Notes under the pieces: generated by a model
The model's database searches: none
The model's input: the letters and a program-made list of their open reading frames with translations, nothing else
Told to the model about the DNA's origin: nothing
Part shown: piece after piece, positions 500 through 64,000 of the stretch
Numbering within the stretch: the stretch's first letter is position 1
Layout of the letters: every line of letters starts with the position of its first letter
Origin: Hausera hauseri
Lineage: Eukaryota
Assembly: GCA_046269625.1 (NCBI GenBank)
Contig: JBJURY010222185.1
Location: forward strand, 1 to 64,000
Length of the DNA: 64,000 nt
Reading direction: 5' to 3'
Position numbers and translations under genes: made by a program

Positions 500-726
500 G
501 CTCGTGCCCTCTCCCATGCAAGCCGCCCGATGCGGTTGGCCAGTGCCTCGAGGTCTTCGGCGCTGAGGTCTTTCTTGTCGGCCAGCGCCGTGTAGACAGC
601 GTTGCAGGCAGGGCGCGAGGGCATTGAGCGCACCGCATCCATGAGGATAACCGCGGCGGACTGTGTGGAGTGTGTGTTGAGGTTAGGCAACGGCCTAACG
701 GGTTGATCGTTGTTCCAGAACGCCAT
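496..726 (-). CDS. hypothetical protein
   Basis: MAFWNND... with GGAG upstream; sits in an operon. Confidence 0.55.
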   Translation of the reverse strand: MAFWNNDQPVRPLPNLNTHSTQSAAVILMDAVRSMPSRPACNAVYTALADKKDLSAEDLEALANRIGRLAWERARA

Positions 727-1018
727 GTGTATTCTCCAAGATTGTTTTGACTTCATTCATGTTGTCTTCGTTGATGACGAGGGCGATGCCGCCCGCGCCG
801 TTGATCTTGTCGATGTTGAGCTGCTGCAGTGCCGTGGGCTTGTTGCCGTTGGCTTTGCACTCGAGCCCAAAGAACCGACCTTTGTAGCACACGATGATAT
901 CGGGCACGCCCGACGCACCGCCGAACCCACCCGCCACTGGGTAGAAGTAGTAGGCACCCAGCGCTTTCAGCTGGGCGACCACCTTGTCTTTCACTGCGCG
1001 TTCAGGAGTCTTTGCCAT
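695..1018 (-). CDS. VRR-NUC family nuclease / Holliday junction resolvase-like
   Basis: TPE..VK, GVPDII, LECKA, PTALQ motifs of phage VRR-NUC PD-(D/E)XK proteins. Confidence 0.85.
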   Translation of the reverse strand: MAKTPERAVKDKVVAQLKALGAYYFYPVAGGFGGASGVPDIIVCYKGRFFGLECKANGNKPTALQQLNIDKINGAGGIALVINEDNMNEVKTILENTHGVLEQRSTR

Positions 1019-1467
1019 TGCTTACCCTTTTCAAATGTCCCCCATGTCTTCCAACGCCACCATGCCAACTCCTTGGATATCCCCACATGAGCCGCGCACT
1101 CTACCAAAGTCCCAGTAAACAAGCCGTCGGTATAAACCTTGGTGGACGTTTTGTTTTTCTGTTGTTCACTCTTGGTGGCCCATCGACAGTTGCTCGGCGT
1201 GTAGTCCCCCGCAGAGTCTATACGGTCTAGGCTCGCCCAACTCCCCGGGCGTTTGCCCATGTCTGCTAAAAAGTCCTCAAAGTTTAGCCAGCGGTCGCAT
1301 ACGATAACCCCCTTTCCCCCGTAGTATCTGTACATCTTATGGTTTGGGTTGTTGCACCGGGCCAACATAGAGCGCCAAGTGTAGTGCTCCACGGACTCGA
1401 CGCCCCCACCATAAGCACCGTGCTTAGTGCGCGCGGCCATCCATCGCTCTCTCGTATTGCTATCCAT
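991..1467 (-). CDS. free-standing HNH-type homing endonuclease
   Basis: W.SM..RC.N.N...Y..YGG.G..VC.RW..F..F..DMG..P...SLDRID..G.Y.P.NCRWAT..EQ..N signature; lower GC than flanks. Confidence 0.85.
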   Translation of the reverse strand: MDSNTRERWMAARTKHGAYGGGVESVEHYTWRSMLARCNNPNHKMYRYYGGKGVIVCDRWLNFEDFLADMGKRPGSWASLDRIDSAGDYTPSNCRWATKSEQQKNKTSTKVYTDGLFTGTLVECAAHVGISKELAWWRWKTWGTFEKGKQWQRLLNAQ

Positions 1468-1491
1468 GTCATTCGCCCGATAATAAGTAAA

Positions 1492-1520
1492 ATTTAACCA
1501 TGTATCGGGAGTTCTGTCAA
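1492..1520 (-). promoter_or_regulatory. sigma70-like promoter for the HNH gene
   Basis: TTGACA-17 nt-TTAAAT with an extended TG, 25 nt upstream of ATG 1467. Confidence 0.65.
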
Positions 1521-1527
1521 GCGGCCA

Positions 1528-1812
1528 TTAGTGCCGCACCGCGTTCTTATGTTCTTCATCGTAGATGCCCACTGTGTGCCGCAGCCCAGCTGATATAGTC
1601 TCATAGCTAAACCCGACAGGCAGACCATAGGAGTAGATCGTGGCGATCAGTTGGGTGATGACCTCGCTCGGGCTGTCTATGTAGGCATCGTGGATGGTCA
1701 AGGGCAGGGCACAAAGCTCTGCCTCTTCCATGTTCTCCGGCAGCGTGGACATGATCTCGTCGAGTTTCTCCGGCGTCATGTTCGGTGAGAGGTCGTCGTT
1801 CAAAATGGGCAC
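1528..1812 (-). CDS. hypothetical protein (start may be 1779)
   Basis: acidic ORF within the early operon. Confidence 0.55.
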   Translation of the reverse strand: MPILNDDLSPNMTPEKLDEIMSTLPENMEEAELCALPLTIHDAYIDSPSEVITQLIATIYSYGLPVGFSYETISAGLRHTVGIYDEEHKNAVRH

Positions 1813-1934
1813 TCCTTTCCTTGTTTATACCATTCGTTGCTAGTCGGCTGCCTAACAGTCTCGACCTTTTCTGGCGGTGTAGGTTGCTTGGGTGTGAACC
1901 CAAGCTCTGCAAGATGCCTCTCGAAGTCCGTCAT
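1800..1934 (-). CDS. small hypothetical protein, 44 aa (MTDFERHLAELG...ECPF)
   Basis: ATGA overlap with the upstream gene; C-terminal PF; read manually. Confidence 0.5.
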   Translation of the reverse strand: MTDFERHLAELGFTPKQPTPPEKVETVRQPTSNEWYKQGKECPF

Positions 1935-2149
1935 TGCGGTATCTCCGTCAGCGTTCCGTCAGCCTCTTCGTGATAGACAGGCACGGGCTGCCACCCCCAA
2001 GGGCCAAGCTGCTCGACCCGCCAGTTGATGACAGGCGTCTCTGGGCCCTCGTTGCCAAAGATGTCCTTGGCCCGCTGTGTTCCATCGATGTAGTTGACCA
2101 CACGGATCGCGCCGTCAAAGGCTTGCTCTACCGTTTTCCACTTAGCCAT
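1931..2149 (-). CDS. hypothetical protein
   Basis: ORF with RBS, coupled to neighbours. Confidence 0.6.
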   Translation of the reverse strand: MAKWKTVEQAFDGAIRVVNYIDGTQRAKDIFGNEGPETPVINWRVEQLGPWGWQPVPVYHEEADGTLTEIPQ

Positions 2150-2540
2150 TGCCCTCTCCCTTGATTACCCAATACACGCTCTCGTCGACGCGCATGCCGA
2201 TGCCTTCGACCTTGGTCTGTGGCGGGTCCACCTTCATCATAGACAGCACAGCCACGCGCTCCTGCATCCACGCAGGGAGTTCGGACATATCAGCGTAGGT
2301 GCCTTCGGCTTCCTTGTCTACGCTGTCGATCCCCAGACACACGACCTCGATAGGATCACCGACGAGCACCCGGTAGACATTCTCGAGCCCGCCTGTCCAC
2401 TTGGCGTTCATCTCGGACACTTTCCTAGCGGCATTCTTCGCCTCCACGACTCTCGTGGGGTTGCTTCCTGTCGCCGCACGGCTGAGGTCAACGCGCTTAG
2501 TGCGCTCCAGCATAGCCAACTGTTCAAATCTGTTCCTCAT
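2142..2540 (-). CDS. hypothetical protein
   Basis: C-terminal ELPAWMQERVAVL...EGIGMRV...YW domain. Confidence 0.7.
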   Translation of the reverse strand: MRNRFEQLAMLERTKRVDLSRAATGSNPTRVVEAKNAARKVSEMNAKWTGGLENVYRVLVGDPIEVVCLGIDSVDKEAEGTYADMSELPAWMQERVAVLSMMKVDPPQTKVEGIGMRVDESVYWVIKGEGNG

Positions 2541-3439: not shown

Positions 3440-3440
3440 T

Positions 3441-4544
3441 TTATTTCTCCTCACGGGTGGTCACGGTGAAGCCACCCAGCTTGCTGATCCATCTGTTGAA
3501 GCGGGCGCGAACCGCCTTGTTGCGCGCGGCGTCTCTCTCCTCGTTGGTGTAGTGGTCGTCGTTACGGAAATTCCCGAAGTCCGCCACGGCGTAGTGAATC
3601 TCGAACATGGCTGCGATGTTCAGGCCGTGCCGCATCGGGTGCTCCGGGCCTTTCAGGATAGCCTGCACGAGTTCGGGTTCGGTGTGCTCAAACAACTCGC
3701 CGTAGGACACGGTGTGGCCCACGATCTTGTGCTGCTCGGTGATCTCCTTGAGGTCGGCGTTAGTCTGTCCCTTCAAGCTCCAGTTCAACTGGCTCCGCAT
3801 CATCGGGTAGAAGGCCATGGCGCTCTCGAACAGGCCAGCGATGTCGGCCTTGAAGGACCCCTTCAACTCCTTGTTCATGCGGGTGCGGTTCACCATGACC
3901 TTGGGTGCCTCACCGACCAGCGTGAATGTGCCGTTATCCTCGCGCTTGAATGTCACGCTCAGCCCGTCATCGCCCGGGGTGAACGCCTTGGCCCACCGCA
4001 GAGCCCACTGCTGATTCCCGGCCTTCTTCATCTGCTCCTTGTAGTATTCGATCACATGGCGCGGTGCGCTGGTGGTCTTGGGCAGGTGGACAGTCTGCCC
4101 CTTGCTGCGGTTGTAGATGAACTGCTTGCCCACACGGGTCTGTCGGAACCACAGTTCACGCGGCAGCGCACGGTTCAGGAATGAGTAGACGTTGTTGTGG
4201 TTCCACTCACCGGCACCGTTGCGGATTTTAATGGTCTCGGTGCCATCCTCGTGCTTGCGCCAGACGATAGGCGAGAGCCTAACAATCTCTCCGGTCGTGA
4301 TAGGGTATTTGTTTCGGGTTGCCGTGTCGCCCGGCCCCCATGTGAATACAGGATCGACCCCATCCCCGCAGGACAAGACGTAACAGTTGTCGTCGATCTT
4401 GATGATCCGCTCCCACTTGCGGTTGCGAGCACCGAGCGGGCGCACGTCCTGTTCGCGGGTGTGGTTCTTGCTGACCACGGGTTTGGTGTTGTTGTAACGC
4501 GCCTCGGCGTCTGCGAAGCTGTCGATCTTGTTGATGTAAACCAT
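3441..4544 (-). CDS. hypothetical protein, 367 aa
   Basis: long ORF with AGAGGA RBS and typical codon bias. Confidence 0.75.
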   Translation of the reverse strand: MVYINKIDSFADAEARYNNTKPVVSKNHTREQDVRPLGARNRKWERIIKIDDNCYVLSCGDGVDPVFTWGPGDTATRNKYPITTGEIVRLSPIVWRKHEDGTETIKIRNGAGEWNHNNVYSFLNRALPRELWFRQTRVGKQFIYNRSKGQTVHLPKTTSAPRHVIEYYKEQMKKAGNQQWALRWAKAFTPGDDGLSVTFKREDNGTFTLVGEAPKVMVNRTRMNKELKGSFKADIAGLFESAMAFYPMMRSQLNWSLKGQTNADLKEITEQHKIVGHTVSYGELFEHTEPELVQAILKGPEHPMRHGLNIAAMFEIHYAVADFGNFRNDDHYTNEERDAARNKAVRARFNRWISKLGGFTVTTREEK

Positions 4545-4560
4545 TGGATTTGTTCCTCTT

Positions 4561-4968: not shown

Positions 4969-4972
4969 TGGG

Positions 4973-5305
4973 TTACTCCGTCGTCATCTTGGTTAGCTTC
5001 ACCGCAGCCACGTTTTGGGCTTTGGTAAGCAGGCTCTCCGTCTCGTTGAAGATGTAGAGAAACCCCGTGGTAGCCATCTCCTTGGTTAGGTGCGCGCCTA
5101 ACGTCGGGGACGCACTAATCATCATGCCGACCATCTCGCCGTTGGTCGGCTGCACCTCTGCGAGGCTGTATTGCTTGACCGCGGCTCCGTGCCCCGTGGA
5201 TAGTTGGGTTGGCATGATTGACCCGCTCCTAATGGCCCCAATGTGTTGCTGCTGTCTCCGCAGGTGGTCGAGCATTCCCTTCCGGTATTCTTCATCCATT
5301 ATCAT
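4973..5305 (-). CDS. hypothetical protein
   Basis: ATGA overlap with the stop of the VWA gene. Confidence 0.55.
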   Translation of the reverse strand: MIMDEEYRKGMLDHLRRQQQHIGAIRSGSIMPTQLSTGHGAAVKQYSLAEVQPTNGEMVGMMISASPTLGAHLTKEMATTGFLYIFNETESLLTKAQNVAAVKLTKMTTE

Positions 5306-6507
5306 ATCTCCCGCTGCTTGATGTGCACGGCCTTGCCCACGCTGGGCACGGCGTTCTTGTTGTCGAGGATCACCCACATGAGCGGGTGGTGCCACTCGCC
5401 CCACGACCCACCCAGATAGCCATCGGTCAGCACGATGACGCACTGTGCCTTGATCTGCTTGTCCTGCAGGTATGCAGGGACGCACTCCACCGTGGTGCCA
5501 CCGCCACCCTTGGGCTTGGTGGACTTGGTCAGGTTAGCCACCTCGTCGCCCTTGTAGGTCTCGTCACCGCAGACCTCGGTGTCCCAGTAGAGCAAGCGGA
5601 TAGCCTCGGGGTGGACGGTTTCGGCGATGCTGCCCACCTCGGACAGGAAGGCGGATAGCTGCGGCCCACCGATGGAACCCGACGTGTCGATAGCCACCAC
5701 GATCTCGCCGATCTGCTCAGAGATACCGCTCGGCATATACATGCCAGCCCCGATGTAACGCCGGTTCGGCTTGCGCCACGTGGAGTAGTCGGACCCTGCA
5801 CAGGTGCTGGTGATGAAGTCACGCAGAGCCTCACGCCAGTCGATCTGCGGTTGGAGCAGTTCGACCATGTCCCGATCACCGCCGGAGCCCATCTTGCCAG
5901 CCATCAGCGCGCCCTGACGGATCGCCTCGTCAAGCTCGCGTGCCAGCTCGTCGCGTTCCTGTGCGGTCATCTCCTTGGCGTCATCCCAGCCGTGCTCATC
6001 GAAGCCAGTTCCCGACCCGCCGCCCTTACCACCACCCTCACCACCGCCCTTCTTAAGATCGTGGAACACCTGCGCGCTGTCCCAGCCCCGATACTTCTCG
6101 TCGAAGTGGCCGAGCTTGAGCGGGCCCGTCATGGTGGCGAAGCTGTCGGTGTTGGCGTCCACCAGCTTGACGTTAATCACGAAGTCGCAGGCTTGGTTGG
6201 CCAGCTGACGGTTCTCGTCATACATCCAGCGCCACGTGGTCAGGTGCCGATAGAGCTTGTGGTAGCACTCGTGCAGCACAAGGAAACGCAACTCGGCGTC
6301 GTTCAGCTGATCGACAAAGGCACGGCCATAGACCTCGTCCCGCCCGTTAGTGTAGGCGGTAGGGCAGCGCCTAACATCGTCCTCGACACTGCGATTACCG
6401 ATCATCAGGATGCCCGCAAGGGCGATGTATTTGGGGTTGGCCATGATGTCGATCACAGCCTTCTGCAGGCGCTGTTCTGCGCTCAGAGGTTTGCCAAAGT
6501 TAAGCAT
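5302..6507 (-). CDS. putative metallopeptidase + VWA domain protein (DUF2201-like)
   Basis: PTAYTNG, LHECYH (HExxH), MIDAS DTSGS, GGGT and LTDGY motifs. Confidence 0.85.
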   Translation of the reverse strand: MLNFGKPLSAEQRLQKAVIDIMANPKYIALAGILMIGNRSVEDDVRRCPTAYTNGRDEVYGRAFVDQLNDAELRFLVLHECYHKLYRHLTTWRWMYDENRQLANQACDFVINVKLVDANTDSFATMTGPLKLGHFDEKYRGWDSAQVFHDLKKGGGEGGGKGGGSGTGFDEHGWDDAKEMTAQERDELARELDEAIRQGALMAGKMGSGGDRDMVELLQPQIDWREALRDFITSTCAGSDYSTWRKPNRRYIGAGMYMPSGISEQIGEIVVAIDTSGSIGGPQLSAFLSEVGSIAETVHPEAIRLLYWDTEVCGDETYKGDEVANLTKSTKPKGGGGTTVECVPAYLQDKQIKAQCVIVLTDGYLGGSWGEWHHPLMWVILDNKNAVPSVGKAVHIKQREI

Positions 6508-6522
6508 AGAGTTCTCCTTGAT

Positions 6523-7170: not shown

Positions 7171-7178
7171 GCTATGTC

Positions 7179-8273
7179 CTATCTTTTATCAGCTGCGAAG
7201 AGGTGACTGTTTGCCATTGCCCATGCCGTGAAGGCACGATTTGTCATCACAATGGCCTGCTTTCCGTATTTAGGAGCGCGCACACCGTTGGCGAACATGC
7301 CCTGCGCTTCCTTGTCCAACCTTTGGCAGTAAACCATCCAGTTGTCAACCCACTCTTTCTCGATGGTGGCCAGCGTGCGGTAGACCACCATGCACACGGC
7401 AGCGGCAGACGTTGGCACCTTGGCGTTCTCGGGGTCTTTCTTGATGCTCTCGAGCGAGGGCAGCTGATCTGCCAGCTTGACGAAGGCCATGAGGTCCATC
7501 GCACCGCGCTCACCGATAGTGCCCATGAGTGCAGCCGTGGTGGTCTGGTCGTCGAAGTGCATGCGCTCCTTCAAGATATCCGACGCCGCTTCCAGCGAGC
7601 GAGGCGTGACGAAGGCCGCACGCTGCTGCTTGGGGTGGTAGATATACGGGTTGTCGTCGGGGTTCTTGTAGTCGTCGAAGCTATGGAACAGCTGCGGGTT
7701 GTCCTTGCACCAGCCAAGCAGGGTGTGATCCACGCCAGCGTTGATGCCCCACTCGATCCACTCCATGTTAGACGGCTTCCTAGCAGTCACGACGGTGATG
7801 CGGTTCCGGGCATGGGGCGGCAGCAAGTCACCAACACCCTCGGCACCAAGGTTAGTGGTTGCGAACACGATGCTGTCAGGGTGCAGGCTGTAGCTACCGA
7901 TCTTACGCTCGAGCATGAGACGCAGCAGGGCGTTCTTCACCGACGGGTTAGCCTTGCCATACTCGTCGATCATCAGGATGATCGGACCACCATGATGCGC
8001 GCCCAATTCCTCGTTGGTAGCGTAGCTGACATAGGCAGCGTCTGCGCCCGCCTCGGCGATGCGCGGCAAGGTGATGTCGCCCAAGTCTTTAGTGGTGCAG
8101 TCGAAGTAGCACGGCGTGTGGTTGGGCAGTTCCGCAGACAAGGTGCGGAGCAACGAGGATTTACCCGTGCCCATGTGGCCCTGCACCAGCGTGGTGCGCT
8201 TGCGGCCCACGGCTTTAATCAGGGCCACACACTGGTCAATCGACAGGGCATACATGTTGGTTGCGCTAGACAT
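7179..8273 (-). CDS. MoxR-like AAA+ ATPase
   Basis: Walker A GHMGTGKS, Walker B ILMIDE, ATTN sensor, TPRS. Confidence 0.85.
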   Translation of the reverse strand: MSSATNMYALSIDQCVALIKAVGRKRTTLVQGHMGTGKSSLLRTLSAELPNHTPCYFDCTTKDLGDITLPRIAEAGADAAYVSYATNEELGAHHGGPIILMIDEYGKANPSVKNALLRLMLERKIGSYSLHPDSIVFATTNLGAEGVGDLLPPHARNRITVVTARKPSNMEWIEWGINAGVDHTLLGWCKDNPQLFHSFDDYKNPDDNPYIYHPKQQRAAFVTPRSLEAASDILKERMHFDDQTTTAALMGTIGERGAMDLMAFVKLADQLPSLESIKKDPENAKVPTSAAAVCMVVYRTLATIEKEWVDNWMVYCQRLDKEAQGMFANGVRAPKYGKQAIVMTNRAFTAWAMANSHLFAADKR

Positions 8274-8336
8274 TGGATAGTTCTCCAGTTGAGTTGTTCA
8301 GTTCAGTCGTTGTTAGGCCGTGGCCTAGCGGTTGAT

Positions 8337-9245
8337 TTAGAAATCCAAGCTGGGCAGCGATTTGATCGCAGCGTCGATGGCCTGCTTCGTGGCACGGCGC
8401 AGGTATGCGTCGTCCTTGACCGCCTCGGCGTTGACACCACGGAAGGCCACAGCCAGCTTGCGCTGCATCAGCTGCATCTGCATGTCCCCAGTCAGGTTGC
8501 ACGTCTCCATCAGCTCGATGATCTCGTGCATCCGGTCGAACACAGAGGTGAAGATTTTAGGCGTCTTGCCGTCCTCGGTCTTGTCGGACAGCTGACGCGA
8601 CAGCGTGCTGAGCGTCTCATAGAGGCGTTTCCAGATGTCATTCATGGCACCCGTCAGCTGGTTGGCGTAGTGGGTTTGGTATTGTTCCTTAAGGGAACTC
8701 AGGGCATCGTTCGCGATGTCCAAGCGCCAGTCGCCAGCATCGGGCAGCGGGATGTAGTTGAACTTGAACCAGAACTTCTGGCGCAGATCGGCAGCGTTAG
8801 GATACTCCCTAGCATCGAACAGGTCGCCCAGCTTGGCCTGTGCCGCAGCAACCTCGAGGTCGTATGCAGCGATGAAGGCGTCCACCATGCGATAGAACTC
8901 GGCCTGCAGGGCGCTGATGTTCTTGTGGTATCCGAAGTAGCGCGGCGTCGGCAACAGGCGTGGGCCCGAGTCCGCCCAAGGCAGGGTGCTGCCATAGTGG
9001 ATAGCCCGCACGTTGGCTGAGAATTTCACCAGTGCGTCGAGCTCGTCGCAGTTGCCCAGCAGGCTCTTGGTCACGCGTGCTACGCCCTTGTCGGCCTGCT
9101 TGGCCGTGGTCACTTCCTCGGATGCACGCTTGTCAAGTTTCCTACCGCTCCATACCCCAATGCCCAGTTCAACCAGCATGGACGACGAGGCTATGCTCGG
9201 GGCTGCAGGGGTGAAGTTCATTTCGAGTTGGGTCATGGTAGTCAT
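8337..9245 (-). CDS. conserved phage protein (DUF3150-like)
   Basis: TLPW...G.RLLP and F...EYP....R.KF pattern; typical partner upstream of phage MoxR/VWA genes. Confidence 0.6.
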   Translation of the reverse strand: MTTMTQLEMNFTPAAPSIASSSMLVELGIGVWSGRKLDKRASEEVTTAKQADKGVARVTKSLLGNCDELDALVKFSANVRAIHYGSTLPWADSGPRLLPTPRYFGYHKNISALQAEFYRMVDAFIAAYDLEVAAAQAKLGDLFDAREYPNAADLRQKFWFKFNYIPLPDAGDWRLDIANDALSSLKEQYQTHYANQLTGAMNDIWKRLYETLSTLSRQLSDKTEDGKTPKIFTSVFDRMHEIIELMETCNLTGDMQMQLMQRKLAVAFRGVNAEAVKDDAYLRRATKQAIDAAIKSLPSLDF

Positions 9246-9317
9246 TCTATTCTCTCCGTTGCGTTAGGCTCTGGCCTAACAGTTGGTTTGATCGAAGGAT
9301 GAGTGGGCGTAGCCCGG

Positions 9318-9671: not shown

Positions 9672-10009
9672 GCTGTTACCTCCTCGTCCCACTCTGGCAG
9701 CCTGCCGCCCTGCGCGAAGCACCTGCACATTGCTAGGGCCAACTCTAACTGCTCGGCGGTGGGTGGTGACTTTCGGGTGGCGCTATGCCCTTTATTCCAT
9801 TTCGCGTTCTGCTCCCGCGCACGCAGCCACCAGCAGTCTCCGGTCTCGCTGCTGAACTTCACTATGACGCTTGTCGGGTTCTGCATCCAGAACACGTCCA
9901 TGTCCTCGATACTCCCGACGAACTCGGGCTTGCGAGACGGGGGTGCCCTTAGCACGTGGCGCTGCTGTGGGCGCAGTCTTTCAATATCCGTTACCCTATC
10001 TTCGATCAT
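9668..10009 (-). CDS. hypothetical protein
   Basis: ATGA coupling on both sides. Confidence 0.55.
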   Translation of the reverse strand: MIEDRVTDIERLRPQQRHVLRAPPSRKPEFVGSIEDMDVFWMQNPTSVIVKFSSETGDCWWLRAREQNAKWNKGHSATRKSPPTAEQLELALAMCRCFAQGGRLPEWDEEVTA

Positions 10010-10215
10010 GTCGGCGGAACCTTATTATTCAATCCCACAAGCTGGGTCTTGCTGGATATCAGGACGTAATTACTCTTATGCACTGGTGCCACGCCCCAAC
10101 CCGCCCGGACCTCGCGCGCCGCGCGCTCACCACACGTGAGACATAGGCGGTAGCCTAACAAGGCGCGGCGTTCAGAGAACGTCGCGCCGCAATCCTCGCA
10201 CTCAGGTGTTTTCAT
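10006..10215 (-). CDS. small Zn-finger protein
   Basis: CEDC...CLTC motifs and PVHKSNY. Confidence 0.65.
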   Translation of the reverse strand: MKTPECEDCGATFSERRALLGYRLCLTCGERAAREVRAGWGVAPVHKSNYVLISSKTQLVGLNNKVPPT

Positions 10216-10582
10216 TTTGTGTTAGTCCTTCTCCTAACACCCACGGCGCGAAGCACCGCAGGTATGTCTCGATCTCGTTGACCTGCGCACGTGACAGGTG
10301 GATGTCGCCCAAACGGCCTTGGAGTTTGCGCCCCTCGGGGTGCATGCTGAGGTTCGTTTCTATGTTCAGGTGCAGTAGTAGGCGGAACTCGCCCCAGTCC
10401 ATGCCCTCGCTTATCACCACCAGCCGCAGGTATGGCAGCACGTCAGGCTCGGGTATGTTTACCCCGCGCTTCTTTGCCTCTTGGTCGTCCCGATACCACA
10501 GGTCGAAATCGGCTATGCCACCCAAGAACCACAGGTTCGGACGGGTCTTGAGCCAATTCTTGTATTCCCTTGGTTCAAACAT
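10202..10582 (-). CDS. hypothetical protein
   Basis: AAGGAG RBS. Confidence 0.55.
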   Translation of the reverse strand: MFEPREYKNWLKTRPNLWFLGGIADFDLWYRDDQEAKKRGVNIPEPDVLPYLRLVVISEGMDWGEFRLLLHLNIETNLSMHPEGRKLQGRLGDIHLSRAQVNEIETYLRCFAPWVLGEGLTQNENT

Positions 10583-10597
10583 CTGTTAGGCTCCTTC

Positions 10598-10690
10598 CTA
10601 CCAGCCCAGCCCATAGCCAATGGCGAACGCCCCGTAGCCGATGGCGAACAGCATCACCGCGCCCAGCGCGTCCTCAATCCACTCACGCAT
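10598..10690 (-). CDS. small membrane peptide, 30 aa
   Basis: MREWIEDALGAVMLFAIGYG...; GGAGG upstream; read manually. Confidence 0.4.
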   Translation of the reverse strand: MREWIEDALGAVMLFAIGYGAFAIGYGLGW

Positions 10691-10691
10691 C

Positions 10692-11021
10692 TCATTCCTC
10701 CGGGTAGACAGGTAGGTCGGGGTTAGTGTCGGCGTTGATGTCAATCAGCAAGTATTCCGCACCGGCACGATTGGCGTAGGCGAAGAGGTGGTAGAGATCG
10801 GCAGGGATATTCTCGTCGTGGTCAATGTCGTGAGGCACCCACATGAACCAGCTGTAGTTGCCCCACATGCCAATGGTCAGCATGATAGTGTGGCTCGTGC
10901 CGTTGGCTTCGCTCTCCAACAGCTGGGCTGTCGAGGTGCAGATATGGTTGGTAGAGACGATGAGCAGGGCGCTCAGGTCGGCGTTAGGGAGCGGACTAAC
11001 AATCTTTGCGCGGCTTGCCAT
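10692..11021 (-). CDS. hypothetical protein
   Basis: VSTNHI...IPADL..LF.YA...GAEYL.ID...LPVY pattern resembling small phage/plasmid proteins. Confidence 0.6.
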   Translation of the reverse strand: MASRAKIVSPLPNADLSALLIVSTNHICTSTAQLLESEANGTSHTIMLTIGMWGNYSWFMWVPHDIDHDENIPADLYHLFAYANRAGAEYLLIDINADTNPDLPVYPEE

Positions 11022-11022
11022 A

Positions 11023-11250: not shown

Positions 11251-11481
11251 TTAGGTTTGCTGGAAGGTCTTGTAGGTGGGGATGTCGAACCCTGCGCCGT
11301 AGACGCCTTGGCGTGGGTAGATGCGGCGTGGGCGCGGAGCGCGCACATTCGGCGGAGCCTTGTCGTTAGGCACCTCCCTAACAGCCTTACCGGCGGGGCG
11401 GCGCACGACATAGGCACGCCCGTCTGCGATAGCAGCAGGCACGAGGTCGGCGAGTAGAGCGCGCATCTGGTCTTTGGTCAT
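11251..11481 (-). CDS. hypothetical early protein
   Basis: first ORF after the strong promoter; GAGG upstream of MTKDQ. Confidence 0.5.
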   Translation of the reverse strand: MTKDQMRALLADLVPAAIADGRAYVVRRPAGKAVREVPNDKAPPNVRAPRPRRIYPRQGVYGAGFDIPTYKTFQQT

Positions 11482-11595
11482 GGCGAGAGCCTCGGCATTG
11501 AATTGGATCGAACGAGTGGAGCAGGCAGGTGTTAGGCAGCGCCCTAACAGCCCCTGCGGGCCGGGTAATAAGGTAACCATTCAACAACTCCTTAC

Positions 11596-11624
11596 AGTAT
11601 AGGCCATCTGTGATCCTATGTCAA
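11596..11624 (-). promoter_or_regulatory. strong sigma70 early promoter
   Basis: TTGACA-17 nt-TATACT, flanked by palindromic boxes at 11531 and 11660. Confidence 0.8.
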
Positions 11625-11699
11625 ATGGTGTGAAATAAATAGTTTTGGTGGCATTGGCTGTTAGGGAGTGTCCTAACGTGGTATCCGGTGGCAGGCAGT

Positions 11700-12070
11700 G
11701 GAATGTCCTAATGTTATATATATTGTTACTAATAATAGATTAGATAAGCCCTTGAAAATACTGCAATGTTCTTAGTGTTACTAATGTTGGGGGAAAAACA
11801 ATGATGCGAGACCGTGGAGTTGGCGCGGTGGTTTCAGGGAGATGCCAAGCCCCCGAACCCGAAGGTCGGGTATCTCTGTTTTACGCGGAACATTAGGAAC
11901 ATTGTGTAAAATCAATGACTTACGAGGCACCAATCGGTAACATTACGAAAAATCAGGAACATTGTTAGATATCAATGACTTAGCGGGAGAACATTAGTAA
12001 CATTACATTAAATAACAGAACAATGTCTGTGTATAAACCAACGCGAAAGTTAGGCGACGCCCTAATGTAA
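11700..12070. repeat. AT-rich region with inverted AATGTT/AACATT repeat clusters and IHF-like boxes (origin candidate)
   Basis: ~9-nt periodic AATGTT repeats on the left and AACATT on the right; WATCAA-N4-TTA at 11910 and 11970. Confidence 0.55.
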
Positions 12071-12225: not shown

Positions 12226-12382
12226 ACGCGCAACGCTGCTAGAGAACTGGTCTCGGGCTGTTAGGGAGCTGCCTAACAGGTGTTTTGCGTTGGTCGTGGG
12301 GTGTTCAGCCTCGGTCCTTGGCCACGCCGAAAGCGGCTGGGTGCGGTGCATAACGCGCAACGCTGCTAGAGCACTGGTATCG
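12226..12382. repeat. 30-bp direct repeat, 2 copies (12226-12255, 12353-12382)
   Basis: ACGCGCAACGCTGCTAGAG(A/C)ACTGGT(C/A)TCG. Confidence 0.8.
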
Positions 12383-12411: not shown

Positions 12412-12441
12412 AAAAAAGGGCCAGCCCCGAAGGGCTGGCCC
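12412..12441 (-). terminator. rho-independent terminator
   Basis: GGGCCAGCCC-TTCG-GGGCTGGCCC followed by T6, right after the gene at 12447-13103. Confidence 0.85.
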
Positions 12442-12446
12442 AAAGA

Positions 12447-13103
12447 TCACTTGACGTTTAGGTCAATCTTGAACGCGGCGCAGATATCCAGCAGCGCCTT
12501 GCCAAACTTAGGCGCGACGTCGACCGGAACCGAACCGTCAAACTTTTCCGCGTCGCGGCGCAGCCGACCGATAACCGCGTTGAGCCGATCCGCGATATAC
12601 TTAGCGTCGCTGGACTTGGTGCCAGCGCCGCGCTTGGTATCCTCGCCGCCCGCATCCCGGATTGAAATCATGCGCCCGACGAAATCCTTTTTGAAGTAGG
12701 ACGATCCCGAACCGTATGATTGCATGATTTGACGCTTGGCCTGATCCTTGTAAGGCAAGCCGGTGTCGGTCAGGAATTGCGAGATAGGGAGAACCGTATC
12801 GCCCGCCACATTGCGATCATGAATCTTTGTCGCAATGTCCTGCCCAAAGCGCCAAGTCCAATAGACTTGCATGGTGAAATCATGCGCCGCGGATTCCTCA
12901 TTAGACCGTTCAGCCGCCTTTTTCAGCAGACCATCTAATGACACGTCATGCGCGACGATCACGGTTTCATAGAACGATTTGAACGCTTTGGCCGCATCAT
13001 CGCCTTTCGCACGCGCCGCCACGGCGGCTTCTATTTCCGAAACGCCAACGGAAAAGCGCACCATATCCGAACGGGGGGAAGAAGTATTTTTACGGGGGGT
13101 CAT
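12447..13103 (-). CDS. hypothetical protein, monocistronic early gene
   Basis: AAAGGA RBS, own terminator, promoter-like TTGTCA...TGGTATCT upstream. Confidence 0.7.
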   Translation of the reverse strand: MTPRKNTSSPRSDMVRFSVGVSEIEAAVAARAKGDDAAKAFKSFYETVIVAHDVSLDGLLKKAAERSNEESAAHDFTMQVYWTWRFGQDIATKIHDRNVAGDTVLPISQFLTDTGLPYKDQAKRQIMQSYGSGSSYFKKDFVGRMISIRDAGGEDTKRGAGTKSSDAKYIADRLNAVIGRLRRDAEKFDGSVPVDVAPKFGKALLDICAAFKIDLNVK

Positions 13104-13559
13104 GATTTGATCCTTTCAAGATCGTTTGTCGGGCCGAACCATTCAGCGCCGATAGGCATTAGATACCACCAAATAACACCAAATGACAATAGATAGGCCC
13201 GTGGCTTGTTAGGGAAAGACCTAACATTCAGGCCGAAAGCAGGCAAATCAGCGCCGAAACGGCCCGCGCGCAGGCAAATCCGGCATATCCAGACCCCCAC
13301 CGGGGGGCACCCCCCTTGGACCGGGGCAGCGCCTGCCTCTCTATAGTATTACTATTCCACACAAACCCATCGCTATTTCAGTACATTACACCATTTATCA
13401 TCAAATTACATCAAAACACAGTACATTACACACCCCCTCCCCCTTCATTTTCGGCGCTGAGTCACAACTCTGCAAACCCGAGCCCCCTCTCCACATAAGG
13501 GACTCCCAAATCGTCACAACCCGGGCTATATTGTAGAAAATCTCCCAATCGGGTGCACC

Positions 13560-51807: not shown

Positions 51808-52026
51808 TCATGTGGTTCTCCAAATACGCAACCCCAACCGCTGGGTCTCGATTCGCTGCCTGCACGTTAGGCCGATTCCTAACCTTTGTGCCACACCTTG
51901 AACCTGCTTCTCGCAAGCCTCGGTGTTGATGCAGGGGACGAAGATCGAGCCCCCCACATGCAGTTCACGCCACGGCACGATGATGCGCACGCCGTCGGGG
52001 TCTAGGTCATTTACCTTCTTCGCCAT
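51808..52026 (-). CDS. hypothetical protein
   Basis: W..L.VG.SIFVPC...GLRIWR. Confidence 0.65.
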   Translation of the reverse strand: MAKKVNDLDPDGVRIIVPWRELHVGGSIFVPCINTEACEKQVQGVAQRLGIGLTCRQRIETQRLGLRIWRTT

Positions 52027-54874: not shown

Positions 54875-54943
54875 TCTACCTGTTGGGATGCCGCGACGAG
54901 GTGAGATTGTTTTTATCCCCCGTCGCGGCGAGCCTATCTAGGA

Positions 54944-55858: not shown

Positions 55859-55869
55859 GTGGGTTCTCC

Positions 55870-56091
55870 TTAGTTACCGTTGTCGAAGTTCATTTCCAGC
55901 TGCACGGGCGCTTTCGGCGCGTTCAGCAGGGCGGTTTCCAGTTCGCGCAGGCTGAACCGGTAGGTGTTGCCAACCTTGATGTAGGTGTGCTTCGGGATCG
56001 TGCCGTTACGCAGCCACTTGCGGAGCGTAGCAACCGACACGGCGAAGTGCTTGGACGCTTCCTCGATGTTGGCGAAGGGTGTATCGGACAT
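55870..56091 (-). CDS. excisionase/MerR-like HTH DNA-binding protein
   Basis: IEEA..HF.VS..TLRKWLRNG.IP...IKVG..YRF. Confidence 0.8.
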   Translation of the reverse strand: MSDTPFANIEEASKHFAVSVATLRKWLRNGTIPKHTYIKVGNTYRFSLRELETALLNAPKAPVQLEMNFDNGN

Positions 56092-56516: not shown

Positions 56517-56566
56517 AGTGGTTCTCCTTCACTATCAGAATTTGATATTTAGTGATATCCGTTACA

Positions 56567-58981
56567 CTAGTCAAGCAATTCCTTATACAGGTCGACGACC
56601 TTGGTATGCACGTCGATCTTCTCGTCGAGCAGCTTGTAGACCCGGCGCTCCACGCCAGAGCCCTGCAGCTGGACCACGGTGCACTTATTGACCTGCCCCT
56701 TGCGGTGCACCCGGGCGTTAGCCTGTGCGTAGGTCTCGAGCGAGGATGTCGGTGCCCACCAGACCACCGTGTTGGCCGCCGTTAGGGTCACGCCGTGCGC
56801 CGCAGCCTGCGGCTGGATGACCAGCACCCGAGGATCGGGCTGCTCTTGGAACTGCTTGAAGATCGAGGTCCTCGCTCCGGCGCTCACCTCGCCGCTGATG
56901 ACGGCGTTAGTAATACCGTCCTTGGCCAGCTGCTCCGACAGCATATTGATGACGTGCTTGAACGGTACGAACACCAGCACCTTGTGGGTGCTTTCGGCGA
57001 TGACCTCTTTGAGAACGCTGTAGCGGTTGCCGATGTCGAACTGCACCGTGTCGCCGGATTCGGTATAGCTTGCGCCCGCTGAGATTTGCAGGAGCTTGCC
57101 CATCATCACAGCCGCGTTGACCGCGGTGATCTGCTCACCGGCCACTTCCATGACCATCTGGTTCTTGAGGCGCTTGTAGTAGAGCTCTTGCTGCTTCGTC
57201 AGCGCGACGTCCCGCTTGACGTAGACCATGTCCGGCAGGTCGAGGCACTCGTCCTTGGTGTAGCGGATGGCAGGCTGCAGGGCGCTATGCACGGTGCGCT
57301 CGGAGTTCTCCTTGGGCTTCCAGCGATACTGGGAGACCTTATACATCACCATGTCTTTCCAAGCGTTGAAGAACTTGGGCACGCCCGCCGGGTTGACCAG
57401 CTTTGCCAAGCCGTAGGCGTCCTCGGGCCCTTGAGCCGCAGGGGTGCCGGTCATCATCCAGAGCCACATGTCGGGCTTCACCAACGAGTTCAGCACCTTC
57501 CAGCGCTTGCTCTGGGCGTTCTTGTAGTGGCTGCAGTTGTGCACTAGGTGGGCGTTTTCCCCAACAAAATAGTTAGGCGTTCCACTAACTTCGAGGTTAT
57601 AGACGTATTCGTCACATCTCGGTTCGCGATACGTAACACTGTCCACCCGAGCTCCGAAAGTTTTTCCATTTTCCGCCGATCCCGCTCCTGACCTTTCGTC
57701 GTGCGGTGGCTGTTTCCATCCACTTCCAACCCAAGTTTCTTCTCCGGCCACGCGAAGTCGAGCTTGTAGTTCGTAGGATAGCCGGGCTGCCTCTTTCCCA
57801 ACGCTACTGGGAAGTTCCATATCCAACCAACCGGAAGCTGCGACGACACCAATACCTCCGCCGCTGTTAGGCCCGTACCGTTCCCACCCCGAACCACTGG
57901 ACGAATCCCCTTCGCTTTCGCCACATCCGATAGATGCGCACGCTGCTCCGACGTCCGGTGAAACCCAGCGCGAACCCCTTTCGCCCTCTGCTCTTGCGTC
58001 AAGGATTTCAGTGCTGACTGACCCGGATGCAGGAGGTGCCATCTCTTCCGAGCGCAGGATCGAGAGCAAGACGTCCCCGTGCTCGACTGATGTTTCCGAT
58101 GAAACCGCCACTTCCGCATTATCACGGTGTACTGCGTTCCGCATATCGGACAAGCCAGCAAAACTGACAAGTCGTCTACCCGCAATAGCTCTGGCGGGAA
58201 CCCAACCCCAGTCAGTGAAGAAAGGATGTTCTGGAGTGCAGGTGATAATTTCTCCGGTTTCAAGTTTCACCTCCACCAGCCTGTTAGGCTTCCGCTTGGA
58301 CACCGTTTTTATATTACGTACCCCGTCACTTGCAAACACAGTGTCTCCGAGGGCCAAAGTTTCTATGGCCACCGGCCCGTTGGGGGTGTGCACGGGGGTG
58401 CCTGCGACAAAGCACTCGTCAACGATGATGAGGTCGTAGCCCGCAGCGGCGATATCATCCCGTACGATCTCTACACCGTCGTAGTTGATAATGAGGAACT
58501 CGGGCTTCCCGGCGATGATCTTCCGGCGCTTGTCGGCGGTGCCGTGAGCGATACCCACCGTGCGGTGCATGGCGAAGGTGAACAGGTCTGCATGCCACGC
58601 ACTGTCCATGATCGAGAGCGGGCAGATGACCATGGCACGCTTGATGATGCCCTGCTTCATGAGGAAGTCCGCAGCCCAGATCGCGCTGGCCGTCTTGCCG
58701 GTCCCGGCTTCGTTGAAGCAGAACGCCTTCTGGTTCATGGTCAGGAAGGACGCCGTCGTGCGCTGATGCGCCATCGGAGCGAACTTACCCGTCCAGTTGT
58801 AGCGGCCCTCGATGGGCGACGGCACCTTGATATTCAGCCCCCGCAGGGTGTGCGTCTCGGGCACGCCCCAGTTCACGATGACCTCGTGCTCGCTGATCGC
58901 CTTGCTCTTCGGGATGACCGTAGTGACTTGTTTTGGATTGCGTAGCTTGAGAAGCAACGCTTTACCGTCGATGATCTGCAT
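56567..58981 (-). CDS. SNF2-family helicase, intein-containing
   Basis: GTGKT, INYDG, IVDE|CSH, MTGTP, HGVTLT, QANARVHR.GQ. Confidence 0.92.
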   Translation of the reverse strand: MQIIDGKALLLKLRNPKQVTTVIPKSKAISEHEVIVNWGVPETHTLRGLNIKVPSPIEGRYNWTGKFAPMAHQRTTASFLTMNQKAFCFNEAGTGKTASAIWAADFLMKQGIIKRAMVICPLSIMDSAWHADLFTFAMHRTVGIAHGTADKRRKIIAGKPEFLIINYDGVEIVRDDIAAAGYDLIIVDECFVAGTPVHTPNGPVAIETLALGDTVFASDGVRNIKTVSKRKPNRLVEVKLETGEIITCTPEHPFFTDWGWVPARAIAGRRLVSFAGLSDMRNAVHRDNAEVAVSSETSVEHGDVLLSILRSEEMAPPASGSVSTEILDARAEGERGSRWVSPDVGAACASIGCGESEGDSSSGSGWERYGPNSGGGIGVVAASGWLDMELPSSVGKEAARLSYELQARLRVAGEETWVGSGWKQPPHDERSGAGSAENGKTFGARVDSVTYREPRCDEYVYNLEVSGTPNYFVGENAHLVHNCSHYKNAQSKRWKVLNSLVKPDMWLWMMTGTPAAQGPEDAYGLAKLVNPAGVPKFFNAWKDMVMYKVSQYRWKPKENSERTVHSALQPAIRYTKDECLDLPDMVYVKRDVALTKQQELYYKRLKNQMVMEVAGEQITAVNAAVMMGKLLQISAGASYTESGDTVQFDIGNRYSVLKEVIAESTHKVLVFVPFKHVINMLSEQLAKDGITNAVISGEVSAGARTSIFKQFQEQPDPRVLVIQPQAAAHGVTLTAANTVVWWAPTSSLETYAQANARVHRKGQVNKCTVVQLQGSGVERRVYKLLDEKIDVHTKVVDLYKELLD
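57536..58414 (-). mobile_element. intein in helicase motif II (293 aa)
   Basis: DE|CFVAGTPV block A, TPEHPF block B, VYNLEV..TPNYFV...LVHN|C. Confidence 0.93.
57544..58263 (-). CDS. Vsr/DUF559-like PD-(D/E)XK endonuclease overprinted in the helicase intein
   Basis: CPIC...CSRSC, then YKLDFAW...KLGLEVDG.SH...D..K...L...GWTVLRI; GGAGG 6 nt before the TTG. Confidence 0.8.
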   Translation of the reverse strand: MKPEKLSPALQNILSSLTGVGFPPELLRVDDLSVLLACPICGTQYTVIMRKWRFHRKHQSSTGTSCSRSCARKRWHLLHPGQSALKSLTQEQRAKGVRAGFHRTSEQRAHLSDVAKAKGIRPVVRGGNGTGLTAAEVLVSSQLPVGWIWNFPVALGKRQPGYPTNYKLDFAWPEKKLGLEVDGNSHRTTKGQERDRRKMEKLSELGWTVLRIANRDVTNTSITSKLVERLTILLGKTPT

Positions 58982-59010
58982 GTCGTTCTCCGTAGGTGTT
59001 AGGGTTTACC

Positions 59011-59268
59011 CTAACCTTTGTTCTTGCCGGGCTTGTGACCGTTCCGGCTGCGGTTCTTCGAGGGGCTCTCCAGCTTGTAGCCGTCGGCGTTGCTGCCGCC
59101 CTTGGAGAGCATCTTCTTGTGGCTCACATCCTTGCCGGTGCGGTCCACACCTTTCTTGTCCAGTGCGCGCCGTGCACGCTGCCGCTCCATGCGGTCCTCG
59201 TGCTCACCACGTTTCTTCTGCATCTGGTATTCGTGACGATAGGGGCGCGGCGACTTGGTGTACGGCAT
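59011..59268 (-). CDS. small basic HNH-like protein
   Basis: KDVSHKK.LSKGGSN......S.NRSRN. Confidence 0.6.
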   Translation of the reverse strand: MPYTKSPRPYRHEYQMQKKRGEHEDRMERQRARRALDKKGVDRTGKDVSHKKMLSKGGSNADGYKLESPSKNRSRNGHKPGKNKG

Positions 59269-59270
59269 GG

Positions 59271-62952: not shown

Positions 62953-63500
62953 CAGAGAAAATTCCTACCCTTGTTGATTTCAAGCAGGTGCTTAGCCTGA
63001 GAGATTGCATCGTCGAGGGCGTTGTGGTGCGTACCGCTACGTTCCATAGGAACGTCAGGATACATGGATTTCACGGTGCGGTAGCACCGATCCTTCCAGA
63101 AGGGCCACGGTGGCGTCATACCCACACGCTTGTAGGTTTCGGCGAGGATCGTGTTATCGAAGCTCGCACCGTTGCCCCATACACCGTCCAGCATCAAATC
63201 CACGGCGTCCGAACCGCCGCTTACCTCGCTAAACCATGCGTCGAGTTTGAGCAGTGCGGTCACCACTTCTACACCTTTGGTATCAAAGGCGGCACGTGCT
63301 TCGCTGCTTTGCTTCATCCACCACAGAACCGTGCTCGGGTCGATCTTTGCGCCGGTGGTAACCGCGCTCTGCAGGTCCACGTTCAGATAAAAGTGTTGCC
63401 ACTTCCAGTCCGGGTCCACGTCAAAAGACACAGCCCCGATGGCGATAATCGGTGCGTCCGGGCGGGTTCCCATAGTCTCAAGGTCGATCATGATGTGCAT
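62952..63500 (-). CDS. DEDDh 3'-5' exonuclease (Rv2179c/DUF5051-like)
   Basis: MIDLETMG, WGNGASFD, RCYRT, HNALDDA. Confidence 0.85.
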   Translation of the reverse strand: MHIMIDLETMGTRPDAPIIAIGAVSFDVDPDWKWQHFYLNVDLQSAVTTGAKIDPSTVLWWMKQSSEARAAFDTKGVEVVTALLKLDAWFSEVSGGSDAVDLMLDGVWGNGASFDNTILAETYKRVGMTPPWPFWKDRCYRTVKSMYPDVPMERSGTHHNALDDAISQAKHLLEINKGRNFL

Positions 63501-63511
63501 GATGGTTCTCC

Positions 63512-64000
63512 TTACTCCCCGTCAGCCAGCGGTGTGTCGAGGTGGTCGTAGAGCACGTCCACGTTCTTGGCGTAGTAGACTGCGCTGGCGTTCTGCTGGT
63601 CACCCCGGGCATAGACCTTGACGCAGGCTACGTCGCCGCTCTTGTGCAGGGTGTGCAGGCGACCACCCACCTTCTGGATCAGGTCGGGCATACCCGACAG
63701 CGGCAGGCTGGCCTTGGCGATGGCATGGGTCAGCTCATTGACCGACCACGGGCGCGGCTCCTTCATCAGGGTATCCATCACCCCAACGAAATCGGTGATG
63801 TGGGGTTTGGGCGGGGCAGCCGGTGCAGCAGGGGCCGGTGCGGTGTTAGTCGTGTCCCTAACAATGTCGTCCACCCGGGTAGCGACCTCGACGCGCACAG
63901 CCCGCCAGCGGGAGGCGTAGTGCGCCGTGTGCGGCGAAGCAAAGTTGTCTGTGGCCCAGACACGGATCATGTCGCCGACGATAAGGTTAAGGCGCTCTAC
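63512..64000 (-). CDS. hypothetical protein (probably begins beyond the window end)
   Basis: frame remains open to the window edge. Confidence 0.55.
   Translation of the reverse strand, partial: VERLNLIVGDMIRVWATDNFASPHTAHYASRWRAVRVEVATRVDDIVRDTTNTAPAPAAPAAPPKPHITDFVGVMDTLMKEPRPWSVNELTHAIAKASLPLSGMPDLIQKVGGRLHTLHKSGDVACVKVYARGDQQNASAVYYAKNVDVLYDHLDTPLADGE

Follow-up and report, generated by a model that had tools for sequence, protein, structure and literature searches.

What purpose is served by a palindrome that recurs more than twenty times along a phage genome and lies, for the most part, inside genes? The question is raised by a 64-kb stretch of DNA (positions 1 to 64,000 of contig JBJURY010222185.1, assembly GCA_046269625.1, deposited under Hausera hauseri), referred to here as the window, in which an initial annotation, made from the sequence alone, drew attention to dispersed copies of GTTAGG-N6-CCTAAC. 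Judged by its predicted proteins, the window is most of the genome of a podovirus of the HTVC023P/Pag-Yong1 type: its capsid protein shares 73% identity with those of Pag-Yong1, MinM2 and Pra-JY27, 66% with that of DSL-LC04 and 65% with that of HTVC023P. Genes are truncated at both ends of the window, hence part of the genome lies outside it.

Identification of the palindromic sites

Ten perfect copies of GTTAGG-N6-CCTAAC are present in the window, all at the positions given in the initial annotation, and none was found in any of 100 shuffled sequences, in agreement with the earlier estimate of fewer than one perfect copy by chance. With one mismatch allowed, the number rises to 21 (10 perfect and 11 one-mismatch copies) against a chance mean of 0.03, and with two mismatches to 26 (including five two-mismatch copies) against a mean of 1.40 and a maximum of 5. 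The enrichment of imperfect copies reported earlier is real, although the lists were incomplete: the copy at 57572 had been overlooked among the one-mismatch sites, and those at 7767 and 48769 among the two-mismatch sites, where 1839, 9732 and 10142 are present as reported. When spacers of 0-15 were scanned, perfect matches occurred exclusively at a spacer of 6, the other 15 spacers yielding together no perfect copy and a single one-mismatch copy. The minimal core TAG-N8-CTA occurs 29 times in the window, as compared with 0-6 times at the other spacers between 4 and 12, and a de novo palindrome scan ranked GTTAGG-N6-CCTAAC first (p 1e-32, versus 3e-5 for the best unrelated motif). The bases of the spacer are free to vary, the 21 best copies carrying 21 different spacer sequences, as expected from the fixed arms and variable spacer described initially.

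Probable selection on double-stranded DNA

In the 42 half-sites of the 21 best copies, positions 3-5 (TAG) are invariant (42/42), and the variants, found in both arms, number six at position 2, four at position 6 and one at position 1. A pyrimidine precedes the arm in 35 of the 42, giving the consensus (Y)GTTAGG-N6-CCTAAC. The earlier observation that many copies lie in coding sequence holds as well: 17 of the 26 sites are wholly contained in called coding sequences (CDSs), where they are read as V-R-x-x-P-N or L-G-x-x-L-T. This placement carries a cost in codons, as 5 of the 12 TTA codons of the gene set fall in sites, which hold 96 of 20,076 codons (p 2e-9). At site 8796, arginine is found in 6 and asparagine in 3 of 150 distant DUF3150 homologues, among the matches listed; since both residues depart there from the family consensus, this site was probably gained in the present lineage at the expense of amino acid sequence. 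As a side observation, the records OL906435, OQ594354 and PP438419 are equal in length (65,014), encode an identical DUF3150 protein and are credited with different cyanobacterial hosts; the host assignment may deserve a check.

Palindromes of this kind might also act as RNA hairpins, in RNase III or translation control, or as recombination sites in gene shuffling. Six of the 26 sites have a start codon within 50 bp, which would suit the former. However, on the mRNA strand none of the 11 one-mismatch sites is G·U-compatible (0/11 being no significant depletion), and in the two-mismatch sites 4 of 10 mismatches are wobble-compatible and no change is compensatory; an Rfam search returned no match for the sites, all 21 spacers differ, and most sites are in CDSs. 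As regards recombination, integron cores have the form GTTRRRY/RYYYAAC, and in attC, which is extragenic, RYYYAAC precedes GTTRRRY around a long hairpin. The arms of the window sites match these cores, but their order is the reverse of that in attC, the spacer is 6 bp, and no recombinase was found among the 75 window open reading frames (ORFs) searched with Pfam, the genome being incomplete. Deletions between copies are described for the repeats of Cluster O mycobacteriophages in the part of the paper drawn on here (PMC4351075). On this evidence an RNA or recombination role appears highly improbable and is largely refuted.

Very probably, the palindromes are selected double-stranded DNA sites for a two-fold symmetric, sequence-specific protein. 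The dimeric protein site proposed in the initial annotation draws support from the constraint at the level of double-stranded DNA, from the signs of selection and from the occurrence of such sites in relatives.

Distribution along the genome

Small early genes along with DUF3150-like, AAA and vWA genes run leftward from the main predicted early promoter (11624-11596), terminase and structural genes are read rightward at 13.5-51.7 kb, and replication genes in the leftward direction between 64 and 52 kb. Of the 26 sites, 24 belong to the leftward portion of the genome. A uniform spread, which the initial annotation named as counter-evidence, was not seen: 20 of the 26 sites lie within 1-13,300 (binomial p 1e-9) and 15 within 7.7-13.3 kb, and a scan of the full window returned neither a copy with up to two mismatches nor a TAG-N8-CTA core at positions 13,226-46,862. 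The dense region of 8-13 kb and the empty one of 13.3-46.8 kb noted before both stand.

From position 13,293 leftward, the gaps between neighbouring sites grow from 0.1-0.55 kb to about 1-6 kb (rho 0.83, p 3e-7); the trend holds on bases 1-13,293 alone (rho 0.71) and is robust to 0-2 kb of missing sequence. Within CDSs the density falls from the early to the late region (18, 7, 2.5, 3 and 0 sites per 10 kb), so that the gradient is not explained by intergenic space. The spacing is also more even than random, with an adjacent-gap ratio of 0.57 at up to two mismatches versus a Poisson value of 0.39 (p=0.003), borderline at up to one mismatch (p=0.05), and long genes are filled by mid-gene sites at ~470-550 bp. 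No helical phasing was detected among 13 close neighbours (p ~0.8).

The putative anchor of the gradient is a C-run/G-run with ACTATTCCAC at 13,293-13,360, in the interval that separates the small terminase gene from the first early gene. The same motif is present in Pag-Yong1 (41133-41200) and absent from five other genomes checked, and the annotated 184-bp terminal repeat of LUZ24 occupies an equivalent place with similar runs. Because of the motif in common with Pag-Yong1 and the analogy with LUZ24, a putative genome end can be placed at ~13,293, and the motif is probably a genome end or terminal repeat. The idea that the sites mark the first-injected DNA finds some backing in the gradient from this end, whereas the end itself and the direction of entry are deduced indirectly.

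Variant sites and a peptide fingerprint in relatives

Conservation of the motif in relatives is borne out in part, in that a variant dyad occupies a syntenic spot, whereas none of the 17 comparison loci scanned contains the window motif in its exact form. The variant, TGTTATA-N6-TATAACA, lies in a 3.4-kb contig of a metagenome-assembled genome (L008, AAA protein 72% identical), the single locus obtained when a genome collection was scanned, in the gap between the DUF3150 and AAA genes that corresponds to window site 8312; it stands in the same frame, has different inner bases and is found 36 bp downstream of an 11/12 promoter match. A second palindrome of L008 (916-937), with 8-bp arms, overlaps the -10 box of the AAA promoter.

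Another trace is left in protein sequence. Site 63845 encodes the beginning of a variable linker in the product of gene 63512-64000, for which 117 homologues were analysed (120 of 133, minus three without anchor). The pattern [VAGD][RS]xx[PT][NSTI], corresponding to the residue sets that the DNA matrix permits, is kept at the site in 104 of the 117 (107 by alignment columns), and no constraint is evident at the two residues in the middle or in the rest of the linker. Changes from arginine at the site are to serine in 74% of cases, versus 0-16% at 11 other arginine columns, and changes from proline are to threonine in 80%, versus 0-33% at 15 other proline columns (two families). On a FastTree tree made without the site and linker columns, at least eight R/S and at least five P/T switches are seen. 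Site 63845 is apparently kept in homologues down to ~50% identity, and, as this peptide and the L008 variant suggest, the sites are probably conserved across the clade. Some figures speak against such a reading of the peptide: the share of N-to-S/T/I changes at the site is 82%, with other asparagine columns reaching 91%, and the deficit of double mismatches among homologues is gone when distinct peptides are counted (5 vs 5.6). The fingerprint is an indirect sign, for which a cause at the protein level is possible.

Some AAA homologues in the set P0018-P0137 show a VSYATN/VSYAPN switch, perhaps the sign of a site that arose in other lineages; the corresponding codons of the window form no site.

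Dispersed palindromes in other phages

Thirteen other phage genomes were scanned de novo, QDWS535 over 50.0 of its 50.1 kb and CRP-901, Rollin, RW and MW202675 over the first 50 kb only (of 53, 61, 62 and 61 kb, respectively). Two of the 13, Pag-Yong1 and Alcaligenes phage QDWS535, have a graded dispersed palindrome of their own; nothing comparable was found in the other 11 (DSL-LC04, HTVC023P, CRP-901, Rollin, RW, MW202675, phiEco32, 1.208.B, VP41s3, MW202697 and LUZ24). In Pag-Yong1, GGTTCAG-N-CTGAACC occurs at 33 sites with up to one mismatch throughout the genome, with no gap exceeding 4.3 kb (p 0.0008), a gradient from the shared end motif (rho 0.71-0.74) and an adjacent-gap ratio of 0.65 (p<1e-4). 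Sixteen of these sites are within 30 bp of a start, eight of them at a fixed spacing of 21-22 bp to the start codon, and 11 lie in CDSs. QDWS535 carries TCCTAA-YR-TTAGGA at 15 sites (0.09 expected by chance), confined to the leftward arm, with a gradient (rho 0.83-0.85) and no significant regularity (p=0.23). Its half-site YRTTAGG matches that of the window in head-to-head geometry. As a leftward promoter with a 12/12 match, at 48604, lies upstream of all 15 sites, the gradient of QDWS535 could be anchored at the promoter. A literature search, with subscription journals mostly outside its range, showed no paper on the motifs of the window, Pag-Yong1 or QDWS535 among the matches listed.

Two further repeats were noted among the scanned genomes. 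Caulobacter phage RW has five intergenic TGCAA-N8-TTGCA dyads in its early arm (2774, 3132, 5681, 9176 and 10390), some of them beside -35-like hexamers, which are probably ordinary operators, and an asymmetric 10-mer, AATACTATCA, occurs at 10 dispersed places in Vibrio phage 1.208.B.

Since neighbouring sites stand further apart the more remote they are from the putative end, in the window as in Pag-Yong1 and QDWS535, the sites could be imagined as an end-anchored structural ladder, which would load a virion-delivered, first-gene or host protein on the first-entering, last-packaged end and thereby promote entry, arrange the DNA or hold back nucleases that load at ends. The density of sites would then follow distance from the end, not promoters. 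Consistent with this, the nearest site starts 85-180 bp from the end motif in all three genomes, spacing is more regular than Poisson in the window (at up to two mismatches) and in Pag-Yong1, and some sites precede promoters or lie in genes of the plus strand. The window also encodes, at 45346-51723, a 2125-residue virion polyvalent protein that contains LPD39 and whose C-terminus has a DarB-like match in PHROGs. (No DxDGD motif is present in this protein, and hairpin promoters for a virion RNA polymerase were ruled against.) Nevertheless, both the end and the direction of entry are deduced from the shared motif and the LUZ24 analogy, the regularity is borderline at up to one mismatch and absent in QDWS535, and a similar evenness can arise from having a single site at each gene junction. 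Moreover, a ratchet that pulls would be expected to require most of its sites towards the end of entry and not at its beginning, and the start-codon spacing of eight Pag-Yong1 sites suggests control at the level of genes. Such a ladder seems to us unlikely.

Candidate binding proteins

Neither of the two binders named in the initial annotation could be tied to the sites. The first, encoded at 55870-56091, is HTH_17/excisionase-like, and Xis/MerR-like proteins usually bind direct repeats. The second, the product of the first gene (12447-13103), is a fast-diverging protein with 17 homologues, whose protein-cluster matches are to unnamed viral clusters; no Pfam or PHROG family could be assigned to it, its model (predicted local distance difference test, pLDDT, 79) has a best VIA fold match of Z 4.5, and BFVD gave none at E<=0.001. 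The first genes of Pag-Yong1 and QDWS535 are likewise flanked by sites and similar in size, but their products show no detectable homology to the 12447 protein (hhalign probability 0.1% and 0.4%, respectively). A parS-like role of the sites, also put forward initially, found no support, as neither ParA nor ParB was detected among the 75 ORFs by Pfam or among 30 window ORFs by PHROGs, in a genome that is incomplete, and the fold search with the 12447 protein gave no clear match.

Two associations were considered and rejected. An HNH-like protein (59011-59268) is the sole non-structural protein detected in all three motif-bearing genomes; it was rejected as sufficient because, in a test set beforehand, none of four further carriers (phiEco32, Vibrio 1.208.B, VP41s3 and MW202697) has a dispersed palindrome. 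The AAA-vWA-DUF3150 module is held in common with Pag-Yong1, but AAA occurs in 474 and vWA in 700 phage records and neither was found in QDWS535, making the module unspecific as a partner. A plasmid search yielded only distant AAA matches.

A new candidate is the OB-winged helix (OB-wHTH) protein of the truncated gene at 63512-64000, which carries the conserved site 63845 within itself. Its model (pLDDT 84) gives generic Foldseek matches to Rho, CST, RPA, Fur and histone H5 folds (Z <8). A phage initiator such as this protein might bind half-sites at an origin-like stretch and dimer sites elsewhere, in titration or autoregulation. The stretch in question (11700-12030) contains nine of the 14 AACATT repeats of the window and a 60-bp tandem pair with one IHF-consensus match per copy, and its unpaired YATTAGK half-sites resemble the QDWS535 dyad; six of the nine YATTAGK half-sites of the window fall in 11707-12061, amid the inverted AACATT repeats and IHF-consensus matches. 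The OB and winged-helix folds, with CST and RPA among the matches, and the conserved site in the protein's own gene would fit such a role. On the other hand, the sites are distributed to one side of the putative origin, the 33 kb to its right being empty, the fold matches are generic, and the YATTAGK cluster may be incidental, given that the stretch is AT-rich and internally repeated. A replication-linked role therefore appears very unlikely.

The binder might also be a host transcription factor or nucleoid protein exploited by the phage. The use of the same half-site by QDWS535, the apparent conservation of site 63845 down to ~50% homologue identity and the lack of a motif-linked phage protein common to the positive genomes would agree with this, but the geometry and sequence of the sites vary among relatives. 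We know of no host regulator with this dyad, and we regard a host factor as quite unlikely.

A proposed role in early transcription

As to the function of the sites, which we infer from sequence, we tentatively favour, at a probability of roughly 0.45, a phage-encoded dimeric repressor as the binder, for which the sites would act as distributed roadblocks and as a promoter-flanking operator pair for the leftward arm. Such a repressor would be made early from the phage genome, bind on both sides of the early promoter (~-80 and +50), possibly with looping, and then occupy sites every 0.1-0.55 kb across the early genes and every 1-5 kb across the replication genes. By means of these roadblocks, transcription of the leftward arm by host RNA polymerase would be reduced or stopped, whereas in the late operon the first 33 kb would be unobstructed. 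This would amount to a symmetric stoperator-like system in a phage without a visible integrase (none among the 75 ORFs), serving an early-to-late switch or a carrier state.

The estimate draws on the stoperator precedent, the lineage-specific sequence of the sites, their start- or promoter-proximal placement in three genomes and the site-free late operon. In the Cluster A/CA repressor-stoperator systems (L5, Bxb1, Rasputin), as described in the parts of the papers cited, 24-34 dispersed sites are proposed to block elongation, with a sequence that diverges between relatives (PMC3029335, PMC13313380). Site sequence likewise differs between the window, L008 and Pag-Yong1, as it does for the repressors of heteroimmune phages (PMC3029335).

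Several observations detract from this repressor model. None of the sites overlaps a sigma-70 promoter predicted in the window, and sites 11660, 12049 and 12260 are situated between the first-gene terminator and the main promoter, an interval not expected to be transcribed leftward. Ten of the 33 Pag-Yong1 sites are in plus-strand late genes (42518-61982, 779 and 4811), and so is window site 46863 in a plus-strand gene. The binder was not found among the window candidates examined, and profiles of the 12447 and OB-wHTH proteins have no significant match in Pag-Yong1 ORFs or 25 QDWS535 proteins. Stoperators, furthermore, are described in the cited parts of the papers as asymmetric, transcription-oriented, 13-14 bp long and mostly intergenic, with a known HTH repressor and lysogeny (PMC3029335, PMC13313380). 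The window resembles them in its 20 or more dispersed copies (21 or 26, depending on the mismatches allowed), and differs in its symmetric 18-bp dyad, whose arms vary alike, in the large share of sites within CDSs and in the lack of a detected integrase or repressor, with genes cut at both window ends. Finally, for the similar repeats of Cluster O phages, a role in transcription initiation is deemed unlikely by the authors in the part of their paper drawn on here (PMC4351075).

Features of the window

The sites, candidate genes and signals are collected in Table 1. A 33-bp direct repeat, 91% identical (12226-12258 and 12353-12385), flanks site 12260 in the non-coding gap after the terminator of the first gene. 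Inteins were recognised by Pfam in the large terminase (14235-16754) and the SNF2 helicase (56567-58981), and an intein-like insert by eye in DNA polymerase A (60289-62952). Free-standing homing-endonuclease-like genes are located at 991-1467, 6523-7170, 23200-24192, 25823-26320 and 39664-40281; those at 23200 and 25823 were assigned by Pfam (GIY-YIG and HNH/NUMOD4) and the other three by eye.

Table 1. Palindromic sites, candidate binder genes and predicted signals of the window
Feature	Position	Strand	Remarks
Perfect site	682..699		In CDS 496-756 (codes VRPLPN), overlapping stop of 695-1018
Two-mismatch site	1839..1856		Inside small CDS 1800-1934
One-mismatch site	4266..4283		Inside CDS 3441-4544
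Perfect site	5085..5102		Inside CDS 4973-5305; uses rare TTA and CTA codons
One-mismatch site	6358..6375		Inside vWA/metallopeptidase (DUF2201) CDS
Two-mismatch site	7767..7784		In AAA ATPase CDS; peptide is the family's commonest form, hence the weakest case
One-mismatch site	8312..8329		Intergenic, 38 bp ahead of the AAA start; L008 has a variant at the syntenic place
One-mismatch site	8796..8813		Middle of DUF3150-like CDS; R and N residues off family consensus
Perfect site	9263..9280		Intergenic, 17 bp before start of 8337-9245
Two-mismatch site	9732..9749		Inside CDS 9668-10009
Two-mismatch site	10142..10159		In DksA-like Zn-finger CDS 10006-10215
One-mismatch site	10221..10238		3' end of CDS 10202-10582, 5 bp before next start
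One-mismatch site	10585..10602		Covers ribosome-binding region of 10202-10582
One-mismatch site	10983..11000		Inside DUF5983 CDS 10692-11021
Perfect site	11365..11382		Within first gene after main promoter
Perfect site	11531..11548		Centre ~+50 from inferred start of main leftward promoter
Perfect site	11660..11677		Centre ~-80 from main promoter start
One-mismatch site	12049..12066		Non-coding; a weak rightward promoter match (12099-12126) follows at 32 bp
Perfect site	12260..12277		Non-coding
Perfect site	13208..13225		104 bp upstream of first gene (12447-13103), ~70 bp from putative end motif
One-mismatch site	46863..46880		In virion polyvalent protein gene, plus strand
Two-mismatch site	48769..48786		TAG core broken; may be chance
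Perfect site	51866..51883		End of leftward unit, in small ORF 51808-52026
One-mismatch site	57572..57589		Helicase intein region
Perfect site	58998..59015		Overlaps stop of 59011-59268, 16 bp before helicase start
One-mismatch site	63845..63862		Start of linker of OB-wHTH gene; peptide fingerprint kept in homologues
First, monocistronic gene	12447..13103	-	Product of 218 residues, mostly helical, in an unnamed viral family; candidate binder
HTH_17/excisionase-like gene	55870..56091	-	Xis/MerR-like; candidate binder of the initial annotation
OB-wHTH gene	63512..64000	-	Truncated (~203 residues in homologues); OB/cold-shock-like domain and winged helix; new candidate binder
Main early sigma-70-type promoter	11596..11624	-	TTGACA-17-TATACT, 11/12 match, by consensus match alone; flanked by sites, none overlapping
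Strong intrinsic terminator	12418..12441	-	After first gene
AT-rich origin-like stretch	11700..12030		Inverted AACATT repeat sets, two IHF-consensus matches (11910, 11970), five unpaired YATTAGK half-sites
C-run/G-run with ACTATTCCAC	13293..13360		Putative genome end/terminal repeat, inferred anchor of gradient

Comparison with known systems and significance

Many dispersed sites are also known for multi-operator phage repressors (P1 C1, the CIRs of phiC31) and for parS and matS, in all of which the binding protein is established and the sites are tied to promoters or partition genes; in the window, neither tie was seen. Pag-Yong1/MinM2 and QDWS535 share with the window a related podovirus capsid module, a dispersed dyad and a gradient from the early end, whereas both differ from it in the geometry of the dyad, and Pag-Yong1 also in its coverage of the whole genome and in its stronger association with starts. 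The ESAS inverted repeats of Cluster K mycobacteriophages, as far as described in the cited part of the source, have 17-bp arms, a variable spacer of 4-13 bp and a subcluster-specific consensus, lie nearly always just ahead of translation starts in the non-structural arm, and gave their authors little support for mRNA hairpins (PMC3203893); by comparison, the start linkage of the window sites is weak.

The nearest precedent is the 17-bp dyad of Cluster O mycobacteriophages, TGTTCGG-N3-CCGAACA, of which 34 copies occur, within genes as well as between them and more crowded towards the right end, with a function left unexplained in the portion of the paper used here (PMC4351075). To the same extent, these phages are like the window in that their dispersed dyads number in the dozens, combine fixed arms with a short variable spacer, are denser at one end with leftward genes and lie mostly off promoters, and in having no integrase and no assigned binder (PMC4351075). 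The window is unlike them in the sequence and spacer of the dyad (18-20 bp, N6), host group and morphotype, and adds to what that portion describes a smooth gradient, regular spacing, codon cost and the homologue fingerprint. The feature is real and selected, probably clade-wide, and of a kind already known but unexplained.

A more far-reaching view, which we consider doubtful, is that several podoviruses independently evolved a graded, even ladder of protein sites at the first-entering DNA end in spite of its codon and amino acid cost, and that these sites would be not operators but a scaffold drawing in, compacting or shielding the incoming genome from end-loading host nucleases. If true, the same principle would also explain the repeats of Cluster O mycobacteriophages. 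The dispersed dyads of apparently lytic phages, left as an open puzzle in the cited part of the Cluster O paper (PMC4351075), now extend to two phages in culture and to a large clade of uncultured podoviruses, and a DNA motif may be traced in relatives through protein sequence alone. The gradient from one end, the regular spacing and the codon cost are new measurable properties that can be tested in the cultured Pag-Yong1/MinM2 and QDWS535, and the outcome would be either a new symmetric stoperator-type switch of early genes or a new way of handling incoming phage DNA.

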